25,224 nt of DNA from a virus (lineage: Duplodnaviria; Heunggongvirae; Uroviricota; Caudoviricetes), in IMG/VR virus record IMGVR_UViG_3300002835_005179, positions 64,001-89,224 of that record; one strand, given 5' to 3'. The translations under genes and the position numbers were made by a program. Below are positions 13,600 through 24,677 of the stretch, piece after piece (the stretch's first letter is position 1; the number at the start of each line of letters is the position of its first letter). A model generated the notes under the pieces. The model was given only the letters and a program-made list of their open reading frames with translations. It was not told the origin of the DNA and ran no database searches.

Positions 13600-13697
13600 A
13601 ACTTCATTATGAAGTTGAAGGAGTTCCGTTCGGTGTGTAAAAGTTTTTTTCTAAAAATGCTTGACATCAACCTCCATTAAAGGTATAATTGAAGTAT
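13600..13697 (+). repeat. 98-bp direct repeat with early promoter, copy 1
   Basis: Matches 14842-14939 with 2 mismatches; contains TTGACA-N17-TATAAT. Confidence 0.95.
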
Positions 13698-14400
13698 GGT
13701 TACAATATTAAAGGGACTTGTGGGGTCGCATGCTTATGGACATGCGACTCCAGAATCAGATAAAGATTGGATGACGGTATATGTCGGAGGAATAGATTCA
13801 TACTTTGGTCTGAAAAGAGCAGATACTTCGCATTCAGTATCAGAAGATGTAGATGTAACTGATTACGAATTTAAGAAATTCGTTTCTCTTTGTTGTAATT
13901 TTAATCCGAATGTGATTCCTCTGCTTTTCTTAAAGAAAGAATCTTATGATTCAATCACTAACGAATTTGGCTTGAGATTAGTGCAAGCTAAAAATCTCTT
14001 CTTAACAAAAAGATGCTATAACTCATTAAGAGGATACGCAACTTCTCAAGAAAAGAAAGCGAGACTCGGATTAACAGAAAAATTGGGTCAGAAGAGGAAG
14101 GTCCTTGTAGATAAATATGGTTATGATGTAAAGGCTGCTGCACACACTGTCAGATTATTACGTCTAGCAAAACATATATTTTTGTACAATGAAGTTAATC
14201 TTGAAGAAGCAGCAGAAGAGTGTATGAAATATCGTTCCGGTTTCTTTTCAAAAGAAGAATTCCAGAATAGGTTCGATGAATTGATACTTCAAGTTGATGA
14301 TTCATTCTCTTCTTGTATTCTTCCAGAAGATGTTGATGCGACTACAGTAAATGCATTTTGTGTTAATTTTTTGAAAGATTGGTTTGAGGAACATGAATAA
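13696..14400 (+). CDS. Pol-beta superfamily nucleotidyltransferase (RlaP/YcgL/NrdC.11-like)
   Basis: GLVGSHAYGHATPESDKDW (GS..D.D), NPNVI and YDVKAAAHTVRL. Confidence 0.85.
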   Translation: MVTILKGLVGSHAYGHATPESDKDWMTVYVGGIDSYFGLKRADTSHSVSEDVDVTDYEFKKFVSLCCNFNPNVIPLLFLKKESYDSITNEFGLRLVQAKNLFLTKRCYNSLRGYATSQEKKARLGLTEKLGQKRKVLVDKYGYDVKAAAHTVRLLRLAKHIFLYNEVNLEEAAEECMKYRSGFFSKEEFQNRFDELILQVDDSFSSCILPEDVDATTVNAFCVNFLKDWFEEHE

Positions 14401-14939: not shown

Positions 14940-14997
14940 AGTAGAAAACTATTCTGATCAAAGTAGTGTGAAAGAACTAGTGTGCAAGGAAATTAAC

Positions 14998-15738
14998 ATG
15001 CATAAAATTATAATTCCCGATATCCACCAAAATATAGATCGTTTGAATTCTATTCTTCAAACTCCTGAATGCCAGGAAGCACAAGAAATTATTTTTCTTG
15101 GCGACTACTTTGATTCTTTTGATTATGATTTTTACACACCAGAAATGTGTAAGTTTCTAAACAATAACATTAATAATGAACGATATACCTTTCTTATCGG
15201 AAATCACGATATTCATTATATTAGTTCGAATACGAATTACAGATGTTCTGGTTGGTCTTTCCAAAAGCAATCTATTGTTGATAAATTTTTAGATAAACAA
15301 GTAATTCGAAAACTTCGTCCGTTCAAATATGAGATGATTCAAGATAAACATTTTTTATTCTCTCATGCTGGTTTGCATCCTTCATTTGTCCCATTTAATT
15401 TTTCTGATATATTAAAAGACAATAATGTTTCTGACTGGTTCAATAATCTAGAACAGAGTACTATGGCTAAACTTATCAGTGGAATTAATGATCCATTATT
15501 TGGTGCTGGAAAGGATCGTGGTGGTTTTCAGAAAATCGGTGGTATCACTTGGTTGGATTGGAGAAATTTCGAATTAATCGAGAACTTAAATCAAGTAGTC
15601 GGACACTCTTACAGAATAATGCCTGATATGATTAATAGTTTTGATGAATCATCAATAAATATTAATATCGATACGAATTTGAGAAATTATTTGAGGTTGA
15701 ATTTGTATGATACAGTTCATTACGAATTTCTTTCGTGA
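14998..15738 (+). CDS. Calcineurin-like metallophosphoesterase
   Basis: DIH, GDYFD, GNHD, HAG and GHS motifs; SD AAGGA before ATG 14998. Confidence 0.9.
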   Translation: MHKIIIPDIHQNIDRLNSILQTPECQEAQEIIFLGDYFDSFDYDFYTPEMCKFLNNNINNERYTFLIGNHDIHYISSNTNYRCSGWSFQKQSIVDKFLDKQVIRKLRPFKYEMIQDKHFLFSHAGLHPSFVPFNFSDILKDNNVSDWFNNLEQSTMAKLISGINDPLFGAGKDRGGFQKIGGITWLDWRNFELIENLNQVVGHSYRIMPDMINSFDESSININIDTNLRNYLRLNLYDTVHYEFLS

Positions 15739-15925
15739 TATTGATTTAGAAATGATGGAATCCTTTAAGAAAGGAGAAGGCCCAATGATATGGGTCACAC
15801 ATGAAGGAAGAACCTATTTCAATATTAATAAATTCATGAAATCTGAAAAAGGAAAACAAGTTATCTACGATCTTAAACTCTTTTCAGAAAGACATAATTT
15901 GAGACCTTGGAGCGGAATAGATTAG
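15707..15925 (+). CDS. Hypothetical protein
   Basis: 72-aa ORF overlapping the previous stop. Confidence 0.55.
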   Translation: MIQFITNFFRDIDLEMMESFKKGEGPMIWVTHEGRTYFNINKFMKSEKGKQVIYDLKLFSERHNLRPWSGID

Positions 15926-16012
15926 GAGGATGCTGGGGTTGGCTCCCCACACAGTCTAGAAAACTGTAGTATCTCTAACGGGATAATAGTTCGATGCTAT
16001 CATCCTCCTCCA
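15925..16012 (+). tRNA. tRNA-Ser(AGA) with non-canonical 8/4 acceptor/T-stem and long variable arm
   Basis: Acceptor ggaggatg/catcctcc (8 bp), D stem gggg/cccc, anticodon stem acagt/actgt with loop CT-AGA-AA, V stem tatctc/gggata, T stem atag/ctat with TTCGATG loop, then T-CCA. Confidence 0.88.
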
Positions 16013-16016
16013 CAAA

Positions 16017-16209
16017 TAACCAGAAGGTGGGATTAATGGCGTCCATCCTTTAAAGAGTGAATCGTAGTTCCGGCCAATATGGTTGAAAGATTACCATGGG
16101 TATCAGTAAATCTTTGTAGAATATTAATGTCTAATACTTGGCCGCATAAAGTCTAGAAATAGATTGGTAATTCTACTATGGATTCTTTGGCGTAATAGCA
16201 CACTGGTTA
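16017..16209 (+). ncRNA. Putative structured ncRNA of unknown family
   Basis: Noncoding gap with nested helices: taaccag/ctggtta, cggccaa/ttggccg, aaagatt/aatcttt, agtcta-GAAA-tagatt and gaatc/gattc. Confidence 0.55.
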
Positions 16210-16222
16210 ACTTTAAAATAAT

Positions 16223-16564
16223 ATGTTTATCTCAAAACGCACTGAAAAATTTATTAGTAAGTTGAGTCCCAACGAAGACTTCAAAATCGGTCCACAACTC
16301 ACTAGATTGTATGAATTTGGAGACGGCAATGTAATTGATGTTATTTGTGATATAGTTTGTTATACGCCAGATTCAATTGATATTAAAACAGAATATGGAT
16401 CTATGTTGAAAGATTTGAATCTTACTGGATTGATTAATGAATTGGTAGATTATCTATTCGATTATCCAGGAGATTATGATTCTGAAGTTATATCTTATGG
16501 TAATTGGTTAATAGGTTTAACTATACGCAATGATCGATTTTGGGAAGAATATAATCGAAAATAA
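16223..16564 (+). CDS. Hypothetical protein
   Basis: 113-aa ORF with phage-like composition. Confidence 0.7.
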   Translation: MFISKRTEKFISKLSPNEDFKIGPQLTRLYEFGDGNVIDVICDIVCYTPDSIDIKTEYGSMLKDLNLTGLINELVDYLFDYPGDYDSEVISYGNWLIGLTIRNDRFWEEYNRK

Positions 16565-16572
16565 TTAAAGAC

Positions 16573-16662
16573 GGAAAATTGGCAGAGTGGTATTGCACCT
16601 GATTGCTAATCAGTGGTCGTCCTGAAAGGGATGCACAAGTTCGAATCTTGTATTTTCCGCCA
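16573..16662 (+). tRNA. tRNA-Ser(GCT)
   Basis: Canonical 7/5 cloverleaf, long V arm, loop TT-GCT-AA, G73, CCA encoded. Confidence 0.93.
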
Positions 16663-16691
16663 TTGCTTTTTTGTTGTAAATATACTATAAT
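16663..16691 (+). promoter_or_regulatory. Sigma70-like promoter for tRNA-Ile/AAA ATPase
   Basis: TTGCTT-N17-TATAAT. Confidence 0.7.
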
Positions 16692-16702
16692 AGTATTGTA
16701 GT

Positions 16703-16777
16703 GGACGAGTAGCTTAGAGGTAAAGCGTTCGACTGATAATCGAAAGACCGACGGTTCGATCCCTTCCTCGTCCACCA
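16703..16777 (+). tRNA. tRNA-Ile(GAT)
   Basis: ggacgag/ctcgtcc acceptor, loop CT-GAT-AA, A-CCA. Confidence 0.93.
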
Positions 16778-16806
16778 AATTGAATAATAAGTAAAGGATA
16801 ATAATC

Positions 16807-17868
16807 ATGAGTCTATTTGTTAAGAATGGGAGTAATTATCGAGTTACATCGAATGAGAATTTAGATGTGCGAACGATGTTACCAGCAGGAACTTATAATG
16901 TTAATTATGATACTATGAAGAATGAGTTTTCTTTGAATCATATTGAATCTTTTGACATTCCTAATAAATTGTATGGCGATCTAACAAAGAATCGTGATCG
17001 AATTCTGAATACATTCAACGATCGAGAATCTTCAACTGGTGTTATTTTGTGTGGTGAAAAGGGTTCGGGAAAATCTCTTCTAGCAAAAGCTATCTGTATT
17101 TCTGCAGCCGAACAAGGAATTCCGACTATCATCATTAGTCAACCATGGTTTGGCGACACGTTTAACACTTTCGTTCAATCAATTAAACAATCTGCAATTA
17201 TTTTCTTCGACGAATTCGAGAAAGTTTATTCGGGGAAAGAGGCTCAAGAAGCTATTCTAACGCTTTTCGATGGTGTTTATCCAACCAAGAAAATGTTTAT
17301 TTGTACTTGTAATGATAAATTCAAGATTGATTATAATATGAAAAATCGACCAGGAAGAATCTATTACATGCTAGATTTTACTGGACTAGAAGTATCATTC
17401 GTTCGTGATTATTGTGAAGAAAATCTAATCAACAAGTCTAATATCAATTCAGTTTGTAATCTATCAATGGCATTCAATAACTTCAATTTCGATATGTTGA
17501 AAGCTATTGTTGAAGAAATGAATCGATATGACGAAACAGCAAATGAAGTAATTAAGGTTATTAACACCAAAATGGAATTCGTTTCTCCTTCTAAATATAA
17601 GATCGAGTTCACACCAAACCGTGAGTTGAATATCCAAGAAGGTAGCGTTGAGAAAATATATACTGGAAATCCTATTACTAATAATGTGCTACTAAATTAT
17701 TATATTGTTGAGGGTGATGGTGAGATGTATGGTCAAACCACTTTCTCGCCAAATGAAATTGTTGTGTTAGATCCTTCTGGAAAAGTCGTCTATGTTAATT
17801 CTGCTGGCGATAAGTTGGTCTTGATCAAAGAAGAAACGAAATTAGTTATGCGAAATTTCGCATTCTAA
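16807..17868 (+). CDS. AAA+ ATPase
   Basis: Walker A GEKGSGKS, Walker B IFFDEFEK and NRPGRI. Confidence 0.9.
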   Translation: MSLFVKNGSNYRVTSNENLDVRTMLPAGTYNVNYDTMKNEFSLNHIESFDIPNKLYGDLTKNRDRILNTFNDRESSTGVILCGEKGSGKSLLAKAICISAAEQGIPTIIISQPWFGDTFNTFVQSIKQSAIIFFDEFEKVYSGKEAQEAILTLFDGVYPTKKMFICTCNDKFKIDYNMKNRPGRIYYMLDFTGLEVSFVRDYCEENLINKSNINSVCNLSMAFNNFNFDMLKAIVEEMNRYDETANEVIKVINTKMEFVSPSKYKIEFTPNRELNIQEGSVEKIYTGNPITNNVLLNYYIVEGDGEMYGQTTFSPNEIVVLDPSGKVVYVNSAGDKLVLIKEETKLVMRNFAF

Positions 17869-17874
17869 TAAATA
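17867..17874 (+). promoter_or_regulatory. Possible late promoter AATAAATA for tRNA-Thr/Gln
   Basis: Ends 6 nt before the tRNA-Thr 5' end. Confidence 0.45.
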
Positions 17875-17880
17875 GAGGGT

Positions 17881-17955
17881 GCTGCGATAGCTCAATGGTA
17901 CAGCAGCAGTTTAGTAAACTGCAGATTGACGGTTCGATCCCGTCTCGCAGCTCCA
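17881..17955 (+). tRNA. tRNA-Thr(AGT)
   Basis: gctgcga/tcgcagc acceptor, gcagt/actgc stem, loop TT-AGT-AA, T-CCA. Confidence 0.92.
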
Positions 17956-17962
17956 ACTTTGA

Positions 17963-18036
17963 TGGGGTGTAGCTTAATGGTAAAGCATCCGACTTTGACT
18001 CGGAGTATGGGAGTTCGATTCTCTCCACCCTAACCA
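17963..18036 (+). tRNA. tRNA-Gln(TTG)
   Basis: T1-A72 acceptor, loop CT-TTG-AC, CCA encoded. Confidence 0.92.
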
Positions 18037-18054
18037 CTTAATATAGAGAATAAT

Positions 18055-18624
18055 ATGAAATATCTTTTTTGTGATACAGAAACAAGCGGAATCGATCCAT
18101 CTAAGCATGGAATTATCCAAATTGCTGGTTTAATTGACATTGATGGGGAAATCAAAGAATCTTTTGATATTAAGATACAACCCTTTCCAAATCAATTGAT
18201 CTCAAAAGAATCTATGAAGATCAATGGACTTACTGTAGAGGATCTTAAGACATTTCATAAACCACAAGAAGGTTACGCCTTATTGACTGAAATATTTTCG
18301 AAGTATATTTCTAAGTTTGATAAAACAGATAAGTTCTTTTTCGTTGGGTATAATTCAAATTTCGATGATTCATTTCTAAGACAATTCTTTATTAATTCTG
18401 GAGATGAATATTATGGTTCTTGGATTTGGTGGCCGACAATTGATGTATCATCATTTGCTATGGAATTTTTGAAGGAAGAAAGATCTAAGTTTCCAAATTT
18501 CAAATTGGCAACTGTTGCAAAGGCTTTTGGTATCTCAGTTGATGAATCTAGATTACATGAAGCAGTATATGATTCAATTTTAACTCGCTCCATATATCGA
18601 AAGATGATTCTTGGGATTGACTAA
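18055..18624 (+). CDS. DEDDh 3'-5' exonuclease (Pol III epsilon-like)
   Basis: CDTETSG, GYNSNFD and HEAVYD. Confidence 0.9.
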   Translation: MKYLFCDTETSGIDPSKHGIIQIAGLIDIDGEIKESFDIKIQPFPNQLISKESMKINGLTVEDLKTFHKPQEGYALLTEIFSKYISKFDKTDKFFFVGYNSNFDDSFLRQFFINSGDEYYGSWIWWPTIDVSSFAMEFLKEERSKFPNFKLATVAKAFGISVDESRLHEAVYDSILTRSIYRKMILGID

Positions 18625-18662
18625 ATTGTATTTTTAAGTTAAAATAAATATGGGAGAATACT

Positions 18663-18953
18663 ATGATTAAAGTGAATGTATATGGAAAGAATTATGTTCT
18701 TGATTTCGCTTACTCTATGGATGAGCGTGCAGAAATGAATTCAGGTAGGATTACAAAAGCAATGTTATTTGAAGATCTTGGAAATAAGAAAGATCAAAAT
18801 TATTCCAAACCTGATTATATCGGTGTAGCAATGAAACATCCTAAGGATCGAGATGTTAAGGAAAATGCGAGAAAGGCTGCAATTCGGAAGCTAGTCTCTC
18901 GGTTTGATTATGAAACTCGTTCATCTGTGTGGGCAGCTTATTTTGCACGATGA
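18663..18953 (+). CDS. Hypothetical protein
   Basis: 96-aa ORF with SD GGAG. Confidence 0.7.
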   Translation: MIKVNVYGKNYVLDFAYSMDERAEMNSGRITKAMLFEDLGNKKDQNYSKPDYIGVAMKHPKDRDVKENARKAAIRKLVSRFDYETRSSVWAAYFAR

Positions 18954-18982
18954 TAAATATTAAATAATTTATGGAGAGATAG

Positions 18983-19486
18983 ATGACTGTTCTTGTTTTA
19001 AATTCACAATATTTGCCCATACAAACAACTTCGGTAAAGAAAGCTGTAAAATTGATTTATCGTGGTGTTGCTGTGGCAGAGAAGTACACAGAACAAGTAT
19101 GGAAATCTATCTCTTCAGAAATGATTCTTCCGGCTGTTATTCGTCTAATCAATTTTCATAGATTACCGAATAGATCTTATAAGTTATCTAAGAAGAATAT
19201 TCTCATCAGAGATAGATATACTTGCCAATATTGTCAGGGAATCTTCTCTGAAAGAACTCTGACATTAGATCATGTTATTCCAAAATCAAAGGGTGGATCT
19301 TCTCGTTGGGAAAATTTAGTTGCCGCTTGTAGAAAGTGTAATTCTAAGAAAGCCGATAAGACACCCGAAGAAGCGTGCATGAGATTGTTGTCGAAACCAA
19401 TGAAATTGACAGTCCACACTCACACAACAATATTGAGAAATAAAGGAGAATCAAGACCAGAGTGGTCTGAGTTCTTATTCAATTAA
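18983..19486 (+). CDS. HNH endonuclease
   Basis: RDRYTCQYC, DHVIPKSKGG and WENLVAACRKCNSKK. Confidence 0.93.
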   Translation: MTVLVLNSQYLPIQTTSVKKAVKLIYRGVAVAEKYTEQVWKSISSEMILPAVIRLINFHRLPNRSYKLSKKNILIRDRYTCQYCQGIFSERTLTLDHVIPKSKGGSSRWENLVAACRKCNSKKADKTPEEACMRLLSKPMKLTVHTHTTILRNKGESRPEWSEFLFN

Positions 19487-19497
19487 GGAATATATGT

Positions 19498-19791
19498 ATG
19501 AATAATTTTATAGATGATCTTGATATTTTTTGGAATATATTGAGATATATTGTAACGATTGGTGTAATAGCCTTATTTACTGTAAGTTTCTTGTATTCAG
19601 GAAAACAGGAATCATATTATATCTCTCAAGAATCTAATAGCAAAACGCAATTTTATTGTGTGTATGCGGATATTAATTGGAGGCCAGATCAACTAATTTA
19701 TTGCTCAGGGAATATTGTTAATGTCTTGATGATTAAGAATGCAGTGTCTTCACAGACACAGAATGATTCTTTAGAAAAGAAAGTCGATTAA
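19498..19791 (+). CDS. Hypothetical membrane protein
   Basis: One hydrophobic segment ILRYIVTIGVIALFTVSFLY; SD AAGGA. Confidence 0.7.
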   Translation: MNNFIDDLDIFWNILRYIVTIGVIALFTVSFLYSGKQESYYISQESNSKTQFYCVYADINWRPDQLIYCSGNIVNVLMIKNAVSSQTQNDSLEKKVD

Positions 19792-19795
19792 CAAT

Positions 19796-19871
19796 AGTTC
19801 CATAACTCAATGGTTAGAGTGCTTACCTTATAAGCAAGTGGTTCTCGGTTCGAATCCGAGTGTGACTACCA
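19796..19871 (+). tRNA. tRNA-Ile(TAT), with two stem mismatches
   Basis: Loop CT-TAT-AA, T arm ctcgg-TTCGAAT-ccgag, A-CCA; C:T mismatch in acceptor and A:C mismatch in anticodon stem. Confidence 0.82.
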
Positions 19872-19874
19872 AAT

Positions 19875-19949
19875 GCCCCTATAGTTCAACGGAAAGAACA
19901 CTAGTCTACGAAACTAAAGATCCAAGTTCAAGTCTTGGTAGGGGTTCCA
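19875..19949 (+). tRNA. tRNA-Arg(ACG)
   Basis: gccccta/taggggt acceptor, loop CT-ACG-AA, CCA encoded. Confidence 0.9.
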
Positions 19950-20083: not shown

Positions 20084-20104
20084 GAGCCGAAAGGCTCATT
20101 TTTT
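20084..20104 (+). terminator. Rho-independent terminator
   Basis: gagcc-GAAA-ggctc followed by a T tract. Confidence 0.8.
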
Positions 20105-20115
20105 GCATTTAAACT

Positions 20116-20213
20116 ATATTCTCTTTAGAATCAATGACTTGCGCCAAGTGATTGACAACAAAGAGAATATTCTTTCGAAAAAACTTTGTCCTGTGATCCG
20201 TTCGAGGTATAAT
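20116..20213 (+). promoter_or_regulatory. Long hairpin plus early promoter module, copy B
   Basis: Arms atattctcttt/aaagagaatat around the same core palindrome, then TTTGTC-N17-TATAAT-N6-ATG. Confidence 0.8.
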
Positions 20214-20219
20214 GGTTCT

Positions 20220-20669
20220 ATGGAATTTGAACAACTGAAATCTATCTTTCCTGACGCAACGCTCGAGACCTGGCATCAGCATCCGAACGGAGGAGGCTGG
20301 GTCGAGAATACAGCGACAGTAGAGGAGACAGCGTTCGTTGGACCGAACGCTGTCGTCTCTGGGTTCGCTTCGGTCTCTGGGGACGCTCGGGTCTCTGGGA
20401 ACGCTCGGGTCTTTGGGGACGCTTGGGTCTTTGGGAACGCTCGAGTCTCTGAGACCGCTTCGGTCTCTGGGAAAGCTTTGGTCTCTGGGGACGCTTCGGT
20501 CTTTGGGGACGCTTGGGTCTCTGGGACCGCTTGGGTCTCTGGGACCGCTTCGGTCTCTGGGTTCGCTTCGGTCTCTGAGGAAGCTTGGGTCTCTGGGGAA
20601 GCTTCGGTCTCTGGGAACGCTTCGGTCTCTGGGAACGCTTCGGTCTCTGGATCTACAGTCTTGAAATAA
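20220..20669 (+). CDS. Left-handed beta-helix (hexapeptide repeat) protein; true start 20220
   Basis: About 17 AxV(S/F)Gx repeats after HPNGGGWV; ATG 6 nt after the -10 box. Confidence 0.85.
   Translation: MEFEQLKSIFPDATLETWHQHPNGGGWVENTATVEETAFVGPNAVVSGFASVSGDARVSGNARVFGDAWVFGNARVSETASVSGKALVSGDASVFGDAWVSGTAWVSGTASVSGFASVSEEAWVSGEASVSGNASVSGNASVSGSTVLK
20345..20650 (+). repeat. 18-bp tandem repeat array (core gtctctggg)
   Basis: Imperfect gcttcggtctctgggaac units encoding the hexapeptide. Confidence 0.9.
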
Positions 20670-20674
20670 ATTTC

Positions 20675-20742
20675 AAGTCACTCATTCTAAACCAGATATT
20701 CTTTCGAAAAAACTTGCTTCGATTCTTTGAGTACGCTATAAT
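20675..20742 (+). promoter_or_regulatory. Degenerate hairpin/promoter module, copy C
   Basis: caagtca-N15-atattctttcgaaaaaa-c-TTGCTT-N17-TATAAT aligns without gaps to copy A. Confidence 0.75.
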
Positions 20743-20761
20743 GGTTCTATAAGGAAATCTG

Positions 20762-20899
20762 ATGATCACTGAAAAACAGTACCTCGAACAGATTGCTAAG
20801 GAAAACACCGAAGCTCTATCGAAGTATCTTGCGAATGGTGGTGGAGTCACTCAATGCAAGCCTGGGACTCCGAAGTCGATCAAGAAGTGGAAAACGTAG
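20762..20899 (+). CDS. 45-aa protein (not in ORF track)
   Basis: MITEKQYLEQIAKENTEALSKYLANGGGVTQCKPGTPKSIKKWKT; SD AAGGA. Confidence 0.7.
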   Translation: MITEKQYLEQIAKENTEALSKYLANGGGVTQCKPGTPKSIKKWKT

Positions 20900-21002
20900 T
20901 TGGGATGCGAATATTTCTGACCGGAATCGTCTTTCGAAAGGTTTGAGTCTGAACGATCTCCATGCGAAATTGCCTCGTCCTGATTCTTTTGTGTAAAATT
21001 TT

Positions 21003-21042
21003 TCGGTGATTCCTTGACAATCACCGACGCCTCTAGTATAAT
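21003..21042 (+). promoter_or_regulatory. Consensus early promoter with a palindrome straddling the -35 box
   Basis: TTGACA-N17-TATAAT; tcggtgatt (21003-21011) / aatcaccga (21019-21027). Confidence 0.85.
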
Positions 21043-21081
21043 AGTTGAGTAGGGAAAATTCCCAGAAAAGGAAAATTAATT

Positions 21082-21635: not shown

Positions 21636-22490
21636 ATGATTCTACTAGACTTAAATCAAATTGTTGTATCAAATATAATGCAACAAATTAATATAACTAA
21701 GAACGATGAGATTGAAGAAGATTTCCTTCGACACATGATCCTCAATTCTATCCGGTCAGTTAAGTCTAAGTTTGGCGATGATTACGGTGAACTCATTCTA
21801 TGTTCCGATTCTTTCAATTATTGGAGGAAAGATATCTTTCCTCAGTATAAAGCGAATAGAAAGAAATCACGTGATTCTTCCATCTTTGATTGGAACGTTA
21901 TCTTCAAAACAATTAATAAGATCAAAACAGAGATTCGTGAAAACTTCCCATACCATTATCTCGAGATTCCTACATGTGAAGCAGATGATGTAATTGCGAC
22001 TCTGACTGAAAAATTTTCTTCTTCCGAGAAGATTCTAATTGTATCTGGAGATAAAGACTTCGTTCAATTACAAAAGTATCCTAATGTTTCGCAGTATTCA
22101 ACTATCATGAAATCATGGATTAAAGAACAGAATCCTAAGAGATATCTTCTTGAAAAGGTTTTGAATGGTGATTCTGGAGACGGTGTTCCTAATTTCTTAT
22201 CTGATGATGATACTTTTGTGACAGAAGGTAAGAGACAGAGAAGATTAACCAAGAAGAAGATCGAACAAATTCTCTCTTGCGCAAAACCTGAGTCTATCAT
22301 GACTTCTTCAGAACTAGCTGGTTATATGCGTAATAAATATTTGATAGATTTTGATTGTATTCCAGAAGATCTGAAAGAAGAGATATTGGGCGAATACAGT
22401 AAACCGATCGAACCAACTTCCACACAAATATATAGATATTTGATGTCACATAAATTGTCGAATCTATTGAATAAAATTGGAGATTTTTAA
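21636..22490 (+). CDS. rnh: T4-type RNase H / 5'-3' exonuclease
   Basis: LLDLNQI, YWRK..FPQYKANRKK, EADDVIA, SGDKDFVQL and GDSGDGVPN. Confidence 0.95.
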   Translation: MILLDLNQIVVSNIMQQINITKNDEIEEDFLRHMILNSIRSVKSKFGDDYGELILCSDSFNYWRKDIFPQYKANRKKSRDSSIFDWNVIFKTINKIKTEIRENFPYHYLEIPTCEADDVIATLTEKFSSSEKILIVSGDKDFVQLQKYPNVSQYSTIMKSWIKEQNPKRYLLEKVLNGDSGDGVPNFLSDDDTFVTEGKRQRRLTKKKIEQILSCAKPESIMTSSELAGYMRNKYLIDFDCIPEDLKEEILGEYSKPIEPTSTQIYRYLMSHKLSNLLNKIGDF

Positions 22491-23732: not shown

Positions 23733-24677
23733 ATGATTGAAAATACACTATGGGTAGAACGCTACAGACCACAGGTAATCGATGATTGTGTTCTTACAGA
23801 AGATATTAAGAATTCATTCAAGAACTTTGTTAAGAATAAAGATATCCCCAACATGCTTCTTACTGGTAAACCTGGTATGGGGAAGACAACTATTGCTAAG
23901 GCAGCTTGTAATGAACTTGATTGTGATATCATGGTTATTAATGCATCTGCAGACGGAAACATAGATACACTAAGGAATAAGATTCAAGTCTTCGCTTCTG
24001 CGATTTCTCTTTCTGGTGGCCAGAAGATTGTTATTCTAGATGAAGCCGATTATATGTCGTCCGCAGTTCAGCCTGCACTGAGAAACTTCATGGAAGAGTT
24101 CTCTAAGAACTGTCGATTTATTCTTACTTGTAATTATAAGAAGAAGATTATTGAACCACTTATCTCAAGATTGACTGTTTTTGAATTCACTATTCCATCT
24201 TCTCAAAAATCTAAATTAGCAGCTCAAATGATGAAGAGAATTCAAGGTATTCTTGAAACTGAATCTGTTGAATTCGATAAGAAAGTTCTGGCTGAAATTA
24301 TCATGAAGTTCTTTCCAGATTTCAGAAAAACAATCTCTGAGATCCAACGATATGTTATTGCAAATGGAAAGATTGATGTTGGCGCTCTTTCATCTATTCA
24401 AGATGTTTCAATTCGTGATCTAGTCAATTCACTTCGTATGAAAGATTTTACTGGTATGAGGAAGTGGGTTAATGAGAATCTAGATTCTGAACCTAATGTG
24501 ATTGTTCGGTTGGTCTTTGATAATCTTGAAGCTTATCTTGAGCCGTCATCAATTCCTACAGCTATTGTAATTCTTGCAGATTACTCTTATAAGTCTGCGT
24601 TCGTTGCCGATCAAGAAATTAACCTTACTGCGATGTTCATTAATATTATGTCAGAATGTTTATTCAAGAAGGTATAA
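23733..24677 (+). CDS. 44: Clamp loader ATPase gp44
   Basis: LWVERYRP, GKPGMGKTT, ILDEAD and SRL. Confidence 0.96.
   Translation: MIENTLWVERYRPQVIDDCVLTEDIKNSFKNFVKNKDIPNMLLTGKPGMGKTTIAKAACNELDCDIMVINASADGNIDTLRNKIQVFASAISLSGGQKIVILDEADYMSSAVQPALRNFMEEFSKNCRFILTCNYKKKIIEPLISRLTVFEFTIPSSQKSKLAAQMMKRIQGILETESVEFDKKVLAEIIMKFFPDFRKTISEIQRYVIANGKIDVGALSSIQDVSIRDLVNSLRMKDFTGMRKWVNENLDSEPNVIVRLVFDNLEAYLEPSSIPTAIVILADYSYKSAFVADQEINLTAMFINIMSECLFKKV

Follow-up and report, generated by a model that had tools for sequence, protein, structure and literature searches.

The final 25 kb of an 89,224-bp viral contig of the IMG/VR collection (IMGVR_UViG_3300002835_005179; linear, 34% GC, CheckV completeness about 49%) were analysed as one stretch of 25,224 nucleotides, hereafter called the window, which corresponds to positions 64,001 to 89,224 of the contig. 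T4-type replication genes in the window assign the contig to a T4-like phage, and the recurrence of an almost complete tRNA region in 18 lake-water metagenome runs from 2016 to 2024 indicates a persistent freshwater phage; a megablast of this region against cultured phages gave no match. Within the window lies the tRNA island of this uncultured phage, in which tRNA genes and small open reading frames (ORFs) are interleaved. An original prediction, made from the letters alone, had listed seven tRNAs including Ser(AGA), Thr(AGT), Ile(TAT) and Arg(ACG), and the anticodons are as it had read them. The seven genes are given below in window coordinates, A34 and T34 denoting the base at wobble position 34.

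15925-16012, plus strand: tRNA-Ser(AGA), non-canonical 8/4 form, A34 at 15958; ARAGORN only at -ps90, minimum free energy (MFE) fold, covariation
16573-16662, plus strand: tRNA-Ser(GCT), class II, G73-CCA; ARAGORN, Rfam
16703-16777, plus strand: tRNA-Ile(GAT); ARAGORN, Rfam
17881-17955, plus strand: tRNA-Thr(AGT), canonical cloverleaf, loop UU-AGU-AA, A34 at 17913; ARAGORN, Rfam
17963-18036, plus strand: tRNA-Gln(TTG), 8 nt downstream of Thr(AGT); ARAGORN, Rfam
19796-19871, plus strand: tRNA-Ile(TAT), class I, A73, T34 at 19829; ARAGORN, Rfam
19875-19949, plus strand: tRNA-Arg(ACG), loop CU-ACG-AA, A34 at 19908, standard type of bacterial TadA substrate; ARAGORN, Rfam

Six of these genes are canonical, each with an encoded CCA, and were found by both ARAGORN and the Rfam model RF00005, whose scores of 57-69 bits exceed the gathering threshold of 29 bits in every case. 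The seventh, Ser(AGA), is matched neither by ARAGORN with default settings nor by RF00005 even at E<=10, the latter as would be expected of a non-canonical fold. Its MFE structure is a clean cloverleaf (-32 kcal/mol, z -3.4). The acceptor stem has 8 bp and is joined by a 1-nt linker to a D stem of 5 bp; the anticodon loop reads CU-AGA-AA, the variable arm has 6 bp, and a T stem of 4 bp, closed by the loop UUCGAUG, leads to U73-CCA. The 8/4 form is also drawn by ARAGORN for an orthologue.

Relatives were collected from two sources, homologues of the AAA+ ATPase (phrog_2376) of the island serving as anchor for 80 related loci, and a 22-mer from the V and T arms of the Ser(AGA) gene, independent of the anticodon, being used to scan IMG/VR. 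The 8/4 tRNA-Ser gene was present in 13 IMG/VR contigs as five sequence variants. Across the variants 99.3% of the cells pair, against 42-66% in slid controls, and double-sided compensatory changes affect three pairs, a single one in each of the acceptor, D and anticodon helices, with none in the slid controls. All 12 pairs of the acceptor branch (8-bp acceptor plus 4-bp T stem) are standard in 5/5 variants, and a variable stem of 5-6 bp, then U73 and CCA, is found in every one. The eighth acceptor pair (G8-C) and the T stem are invariant, and it is geometry that decides for 8/4, as the 7/5 form needs G8 and an A.C mismatch. Given this clean cloverleaf and the compensatory changes, Ser(AGA) is a real structured RNA gene, an 8/4 tRNA with a long variable arm; the 210-nt spacer downstream of it has no significant structure (z -0.8). 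The original prediction had overlooked both this form and its derivation from a UGA gene by one base. Default tRNA finders miss the gene, and censuses of phage tRNAs thus undercount such genes.

In the sections of Mukai et al. that deal with (8/4) tRNA-Ser of 'certain bacteria and their phages' (NAR 2017, PMC5389517), G73 or U73 together with a long variable arm are given as SerRS identity elements. The window gene resembles that class in its 12-bp branch split 8+4, its long variable arm, U73 (or G73 in the class), a serine anticodon and its location in a phage tRNA cluster. It differs by its A34, an AGA version being absent from those sections of the main text, and its D arm of 5 bp with a 6-nt loop is distinct from the tRNA-Sec-like long stem and tetraloop that they describe for allo-tRNAs. 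The long variable arm and U73 fit the published class and would make the tRNA a substrate of SerRS.

Among the 13 contigs, the anticodon is AGA in the window and two contigs of its clade, and TGA in the remaining ten, which fall into three variants. The two other AGA contigs represent a second strain (98% protein identity in the neighbouring gene, one difference in the variable arm). The copy of the L083 type differs from that of the window, outside the variable arm, at nucleotide 34 only. Because all relatives outside the window clade are TGA and the nearest one differs only at this nucleotide, the serine A34 looks, by parsimony, like a recent single U34-to-A34 substitution in the immediate lineage of this phage. 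One base change on a rare 8/4 scaffold is enough to make an A34 serine tRNA. The phages that bear the scaffold range from 34 to 44% GC.

Two DNA runs from the same lakes (X6 and X10) contained other phages that share with the window the 8/4 tRNA-Ser gene alone, in its TGA form and in different genomic contexts, which suggests that this gene moves between co-occurring phages. Depth was 11-31x for TGA-type copies versus 7-9x for the window strain.

Sequencing errors in the anticodons were addressed with independent assemblies. The A34 of Thr, the T34 of Ile and the A34 of Arg recur as the same bases in independent lake-metagenome contigs and in two other IMG/VR assemblies (L002/L003), whose Thr(AGT) and Ile(TAT) genes are identical to those of the window; position 17913 is A in contigs of both DNA and RNA libraries. 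For Ser(AGA), A34 is repeated in the two IMG/VR assemblies of the second strain, and two lake DNA runs neither confirm nor refute it: contigs of the window strain end at 15954 and resume at 15983-15986, and position 15958 is covered by TGA-type relatives only. None of the RNA-library contigs extends over Ser(AGA), Ile(TAT) or Arg(ACG). An apparent joint between 16747 and 17903 in the sequencing runs most likely arose in the assembly graph, where two tRNAs with similar T arms became linked. Three additional ARAGORN -ps90 candidates in the genome, Leu(taa) at 20261, Asn(gtt) at 37808 and Glu(ttc) at 72645, have poor stems and were rejected as false positives.

That bacteria avoid A34 outside Arg as well as Ile-UAU, as had been put forward for this set, is true of most of them (PMC8007984, PMC11066159). 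Phage tRNAs are said in a review to lack, like bacteria, the 'prohibited' anticodons, that is ANN other than Arg and Ile-UAU (PMC8007984), and natural unmodified A34 tRNAs have been described as extremely rare (PMC11066159). A scan of IMG/VR with the Thr anticodon arm, position 34 being left free, returned 83 contigs, with A34 in 23 and T34 in 60. Most of them are large tRNA arrays related to those of the T4-like cyanophages S-PM2, S-CREM1, S-CRM01 and DSL-LC03. In about 20 cyanophage-like contigs Thr(agt) occupies a fixed position in the order …Met-His-Thr(agt)-[Cys]-Gln…Arg(acg)-Ile(tat)…, which the Thr-Gln and Ile(tat)/Arg(acg) adjacencies of the window resemble, and A34 is retained across diverged copies. 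Some arrays hold Thr(agt) plus a Thr(tgt) on a different body, and about ten cyanophage-like arrays have no Thr tRNA other than Thr(agt).

When 97 Thr genes were clustered, AGT occurred on three tRNA bodies unrelated to one another, those of the array family, of the window clade and of L075, which means at least three independent origins of Thr(AGU) in aquatic phages, where it has been stably kept. The genes that ARAGORN called 'Asn(att)' and 'His(atg)' in relatives have no U33 and were left out of the A34 counts. Thr(agt) was not found in cultured phages, where the array Thr family appears only in TGT form (Synechococcus phage DSL-LC03); S-PM2 and S-CREM1 run His-Gln without Thr(agt), and S-CRM01 has Thr(ggt) there. 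A T-arm/acceptor pattern search for the window Thr body with another wobble base recovered only the window's own clade, and a literature search on Thr-AGT in phages found nothing relevant. The recurrent and conserved Thr(AGU) of aquatic phage arrays contradicts the review statement (PMC8007984).

Unusual tRNA-like genes were noticed in the same loci. Next to Thr(agt) in the distant relative L075 (9789-9884) lies a 96-nt gene with a long variable arm and an ACG anticodon, seen at relaxed threshold only. L133, L140 and L146 carry class-I 'Leu(aag)' genes with a short variable arm (75-77 nt), whose body is like that of the neighbouring Arg(ACG), not leucine-like. In the sister phage, an 88-nt gene with a four-base 'agct' anticodon (relaxed ARAGORN) follows Thr(tgt) (L005:8866-8953, L004:4712-4799).

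Codons were counted in ORFs of at least 150 aa. TCT makes up 48% of Ser codons (38 per 1000, the sixth commonest codon overall) and ACT 43% of Thr codons (26 per 1000, twelfth overall), each at the top of its family, and AGA and AGT are the Watson-Crick partners of the commonest Ser and Thr codons, as had been proposed. The proposal that ATA is also frequent did not hold, since at 18% it is the least used Ile codon. CGT accounts for 22% of Arg codons. Shares of TCT, ACT and ATA were flat across strand blocks, with no bias by gene class. Among the phages with an 8/4 tRNA-Ser, the window clade has the highest TCT share (0.47-0.48, versus 0.40, 0.40 and 0.18 in the TGA clades), and the ACT share is 0.52 in array loci with Thr(agt) versus 0.47 in those for which Thr(tgt) alone was recorded; both trends agree with codon matching. 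Co-occurring lake phages of differing TCT usage hold one tRNA body in a UGA and an AGA version, a natural test pair that bears on how A34 decodes in a bacterial system and on why cells avoid it.

AGY codons are strongly avoided in the genome (AGT 7% and AGC 2% of Ser) despite the presence of tRNA-Ser(GCT), whereas in the L083 group, which has the same 8/4 body, AGY reaches 51%. Serine-repeat mini-genes of the form (TCTNGG)n occur at genome positions 20449-21080 (plus strand) and 46903-47028 (minus strand), in G004 at 47262-50869 (minus strand) and in G008; they contribute about 125 TCT codons in this contig. A link between these repeats and Ser(AGA) was rejected, the repeats being also present in the TGA-type relatives G004 and G008. 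Recoding of stop codons was likewise discarded, as coding density did not improve when TAG, TGA or TAA was read as sense. Outside the window, at genome positions 24146-24220 (plus strand), lies a canonical tRNA whose anticodon, CTA, is that of an amber suppressor; no genome-wide sign of TAG recoding was seen.

The Ile(TAT) gene has a class-I body, a UAU anticodon and the bases A37, A38 and A73, and by its sequence qualifies as a minor AUA-reading tRNA-Ile. It carries two stem mismatches, C5.U68 and A30.C40, but as a gene is conserved within the clade. Ile(tat) is common in the sampled aquatic arrays (25 genes in 22 loci). As in Mycoplasma mobile and some Firmicutes, AUA would here be read by UAU and not by lysidine-CAU; those organisms differ in having an adapted IleRS and ribosome (PMC3575796). 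With an IleRS of the E. coli type, charging of UAU is about 360-fold poorer than that of LAU, and on E. coli ribosomes UAU can misread AUG (PMC3575796), so that the use of this tRNA depends on features of the host.

Separate from this class-I gene, tRNAs with a UAU anticodon, A73 and a long variable arm (88-93 nt) were seen in sister phages and cyanophage-like arrays (L005:3970-4062, the same in L089 and L091; also L101, L102, L118, L135 and L148). The combination of a class-II body with an isoleucine anticodon puts their amino acid in question; in the part of Mukai et al. on allo-tRNAs, UAU is named as a predominant anticodon (PMC5389517).

Taken together, we favour, at odds slightly better than even (about 0.55), a reading in which the seven genes are functional tRNAs and Ser(AGA) and Thr(AGU) keep an unmodified A34, which makes them plain Watson-Crick readers of UCU and ACU dedicated to the commonest Ser and Thr codons. 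A34 would stay as such in both tRNAs and would read UCU and ACU by an A:U pair and the C-ending codons weakly, and the two tRNAs would supply the most used Ser and Thr codons of the phage, to its presumed selective benefit. Ser(AGA) would derive from an (8/4) tRNA-Ser(UGA), a scaffold common to co-occurring lake phages. Arg(ACG) is of the ordinary bacterial type, presumably edited to ICG by the host TadA, and Ile(UAU) would read AUA without need for lysidine. Thr(AGU) and Ile(UAU) would be charged by ThrRS and IleRS.

Of the two branches offered by the original prediction, an unmodified A34 or a broadened deaminase encoded elsewhere, the first is the better supported. In a CU-NNN-AA loop, E. 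coli TadA edits only ACG, AUG and, to about 15%, AAG, and leaves AGA and AGU unedited; these unedited anticodons read the U-ending over the C-ending codon by at least 10:1, with A and G below detection (PMC11066159). The CU-AGA-AA loop of the window Ser gene is identical to the loop tested in that study. Inosine at position 34 (I34) is known in bacteria from Arg(ACG) and, rarely, Leu(AAG) only, and the remaining A34 tRNAs of bacteria are reported to stay unconverted (PMC8266599). The U33-A34-C35-G36 loop, or at least an ANG anticodon, which marks TadA substrates, is present in Arg(ACG) and missing from Ser AGA and Thr AGU, although the TadA of another host could differ. Contigs from two metatranscriptome libraries covering tRNA-Thr have A, not G, at 17913, at a depth of about 3 and with a possible origin in DNA or in unprocessed precursors.

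Known systems offer partial parallels. In the accounts of the expanded A34 sets of Leuconostocaceae and Oenococcus oeni given by later papers (Rafels-Ybern et al. 2019 via PMC8007984, PMC11066159, PMC8266599), Thr(AGU) and Ser(AGA) likewise stand beside Arg(ACG) in a bacterial-type translation system, and only Arg and Leu are edited while the others remain A34. The window has the Thr, Ser and Arg members of such a set, and no Leu(AAG) was found in the 89-kb contig (about 49% complete). Unlike those of Oenococcus, its genes are borne by a phage, supplement the host set rather than replace GNN tRNAs, and include an 8/4 Ser gene. A naturally unedited A34 is also reported, in the summary of PMC11066159 (Andachi 1987; Inagaki 1995), for the tRNA-Thr(AGU) of Mycoplasma capricolum, which coexists with decoding of the Thr(UGU) type; there, a minimal set reads whole codon boxes, whereas the phage tRNA is an add-on matched to codon bias. 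The cluster of phage T4 (NC_000866) is similarly a small island that includes Ser, Thr, Ile, Gln and Arg tRNAs and is broken up by ORFs and a homing endonuclease; T4 differs in having Ser(TGA), Thr(TGT), Arg(TCT) and an Ile(CAT) of the lysidine type, and neither A34 nor UAU occurs in its set. A34 tRNAs (Oenococcus, Mycoplasma) and phage 8/4 tRNA-Ser are thus already known; the single A34 switch on an 8/4 scaffold and the wide occurrence of Thr(AGU) in aquatic phages are what this analysis adds.

Several observations weigh against dedicated, unmodified A34 readers. Differences in codon usage between A34 and U34 phages are small and come from few independent lineages, two UGA clades still having 40% TCT. 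The AGY codons read by Ser(GCU) make up only 9% of Ser codons, and the CGN codons of Arg(ACG) are rare, so that codon supply falls short of explaining the whole tRNA set. Ser(AGA) is limited to one shallow clade and could be a neutral or mildly harmful recent mutation. The RNA-library contigs may stem from DNA or precursors, and contigs drop minority variants. With the contig about 49% complete, a tRNA deaminase could lie in the missing half.

The alternative that survives best, although we think it improbable, is that Ser(AGA) and Thr(AGU) undergo deamination of A34 to inosine, by a relaxed host TadA or by a deaminase of the phage, in a eukaryote-like economy that would read U-, C- and A-ending codons. 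The phage already depends on A34 editing for Arg(ACG), whose loop has the same flanking bases as the Ser loop; IGA would cover 82% of Ser codons (TCT+TCC+TCA) and IGU 92% of Thr codons (ACT+ACC+ACA), and such a range would suit the cyanophage-like arrays where Thr(agt) is the only Thr tRNA. The inactivity of E. coli TadA on AGA and AGU (PMC11066159), the unmodified state of the extra bacterial A34 tRNAs (PMC8266599) and, weakly, the A at 17913 in RNA-library contigs speak against it. As to a phage enzyme, the 89-kb contig (about 49% complete) held no TadA-like gene and a single gene of the cytidine deaminase (CDA) fold:

Genome 15971-16390, minus strand: CDA-fold zinc deaminase of 139 aa with HAE and PCxxC motifs; orthologue at L181:1468-1887, minus strand

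The name favours editing in part, since the automated JGI names of this family are split between TadA (about eight members) and dCMP deaminase, and in the sister phage G004 the 139-aa protein exists alongside a canonical dCMP deaminase, so that it is not simply that enzyme. It has no match among the NCBIfam TadA models, however, and its cultured-phage relatives are unnamed or annotated as dCMP deaminase. The best full-length match of a 34-sequence profile of the family is human dCMP deaminase (3e-6), TadA being matched over the HAE zinc motif only. In Foldseek, its AlphaFold model (pLDDT 87.7) retrieves dCMP deaminases at the top, ADAT2 being ranked 14th and TadA 41st, all with modest TM values (0.55-0.62). 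Its neighbours are UvdE, a deoxyribosyltransferase-like gene and a PRPP-synthetase-like gene, a setting of nucleotide metabolism. The protein occurs in G004, a phage with UGA in its 8/4 Ser tRNA and UGU in its Thr tRNA, whereas the 100%-complete 249-kb contig G001, which has Thr(agt), contains no CDA-fold gene; the 139-aa deaminase is also absent from G002, G003 and G005. Its distribution therefore does not track A34 tRNAs. The evidence from sequence and modelling leans away from a tRNA deaminase, the protein looking nucleotide-directed, and leaves the broadened deaminase of the original prediction without support.

It is also rather unlikely that Ser(AGA) results from a recent point mutation of neutral or slightly harmful effect, or marks the onset of decay of a redundant tRNA, with Thr(AGU) alone under selection. 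The confinement of AGA to one shallow clade of near-identical contigs, the greater depth of the TGA-type copies in the two lake DNA runs and the two stem mismatches of the neighbouring Ile(TAT) would agree with this. The stems, T loop and CCA end of Ser(AGA) are nevertheless all intact, and nucleotide 34 is the only change from the closest relative outside the fast-evolving variable arm. A34 is moreover common to two strains from different metagenomes, and the switch yields the exact Watson-Crick partner of the commonest Ser codon.

We give still less credit to the idea that the unusual wobble bases mainly evade host anticodon nucleases directed at modified U34/L34 loops, or limiting host modification by CmoA/B (cmo5U34) and TilS (lysidine), the codon match being secondary. 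Ile(UAU) does make TilS unnecessary (lysidine role, PMC3575796), recurrent independent U-to-A switches suit an arms race as well as codon supply, and putative RNA repair genes adjoining the island hint at tRNA damage. That last link is one of adjacency only, however; no nuclease specific for Ser(UGA) or Thr(UGU) was identified in this analysis, the arrays with both Thr(agt) and Thr(tgt) look like complementation and not replacement, and the UAU anticodon brings the costs in charging and AUG misreading given above. Least probable is a general scheme in which aquatic phages run an expanded eukaryote-like inosine decoding through a relaxed host TadA or the widespread phage zinc deaminase of about 139 aa; if true, one phage tRNA would read three codons of a four-codon box.

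The other features of the window, in and around the tRNA island, are as follows.

13696-14400, plus strand: nucleotidyltransferase of the 'RNA repair pathway' Pfam family RlaP, directly upstream of the island
14968-15738, plus strand: calcineurin-like phosphoesterase, directly upstream of the island
16223-16564, plus strand: ORF of 113 aa, flanked by the two Ser tRNAs and without a family match
16807-17868, plus strand: AAA+ ATPase (phrog_2376), between Ile(GAT) and Thr(AGT)
18055-18624, plus strand: DEDD (RNase T-like) exonuclease
18983-19486, plus strand: HNH endonuclease, within the tRNA cluster
20084-20103, plus strand: terminator-like hairpin and T-run, about 135 nt past the last tRNA (consensus match only)
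20103-20669, plus strand: GC-rich ORF
21636-22490: RNase H, T4-type replication gene
23733-24677: gp44-like clamp loader, T4-type replication gene

The phosphoesterase matches the phosphoesterase part of an RNA-ligase phrog, and together with the RlaP nucleotidyltransferase it may form a module for tRNA repair or maintenance. Promoter-like sites were at chance level (20 found versus 22.9 expected). The tRNA-His of the sister contig L005, inspected for a hint of the host, is of the canonical 7/5 form with C73 and T at -1, not of the alpha-proteobacterial 8/4, A73 type, and no host was concluded from it. The hairpin at 20084-20103 possibly marks the end of the tRNA transcription unit. The ORF just past the island (47% GC) encodes repeats resembling the YdcK beta-solenoid and bactofilin.

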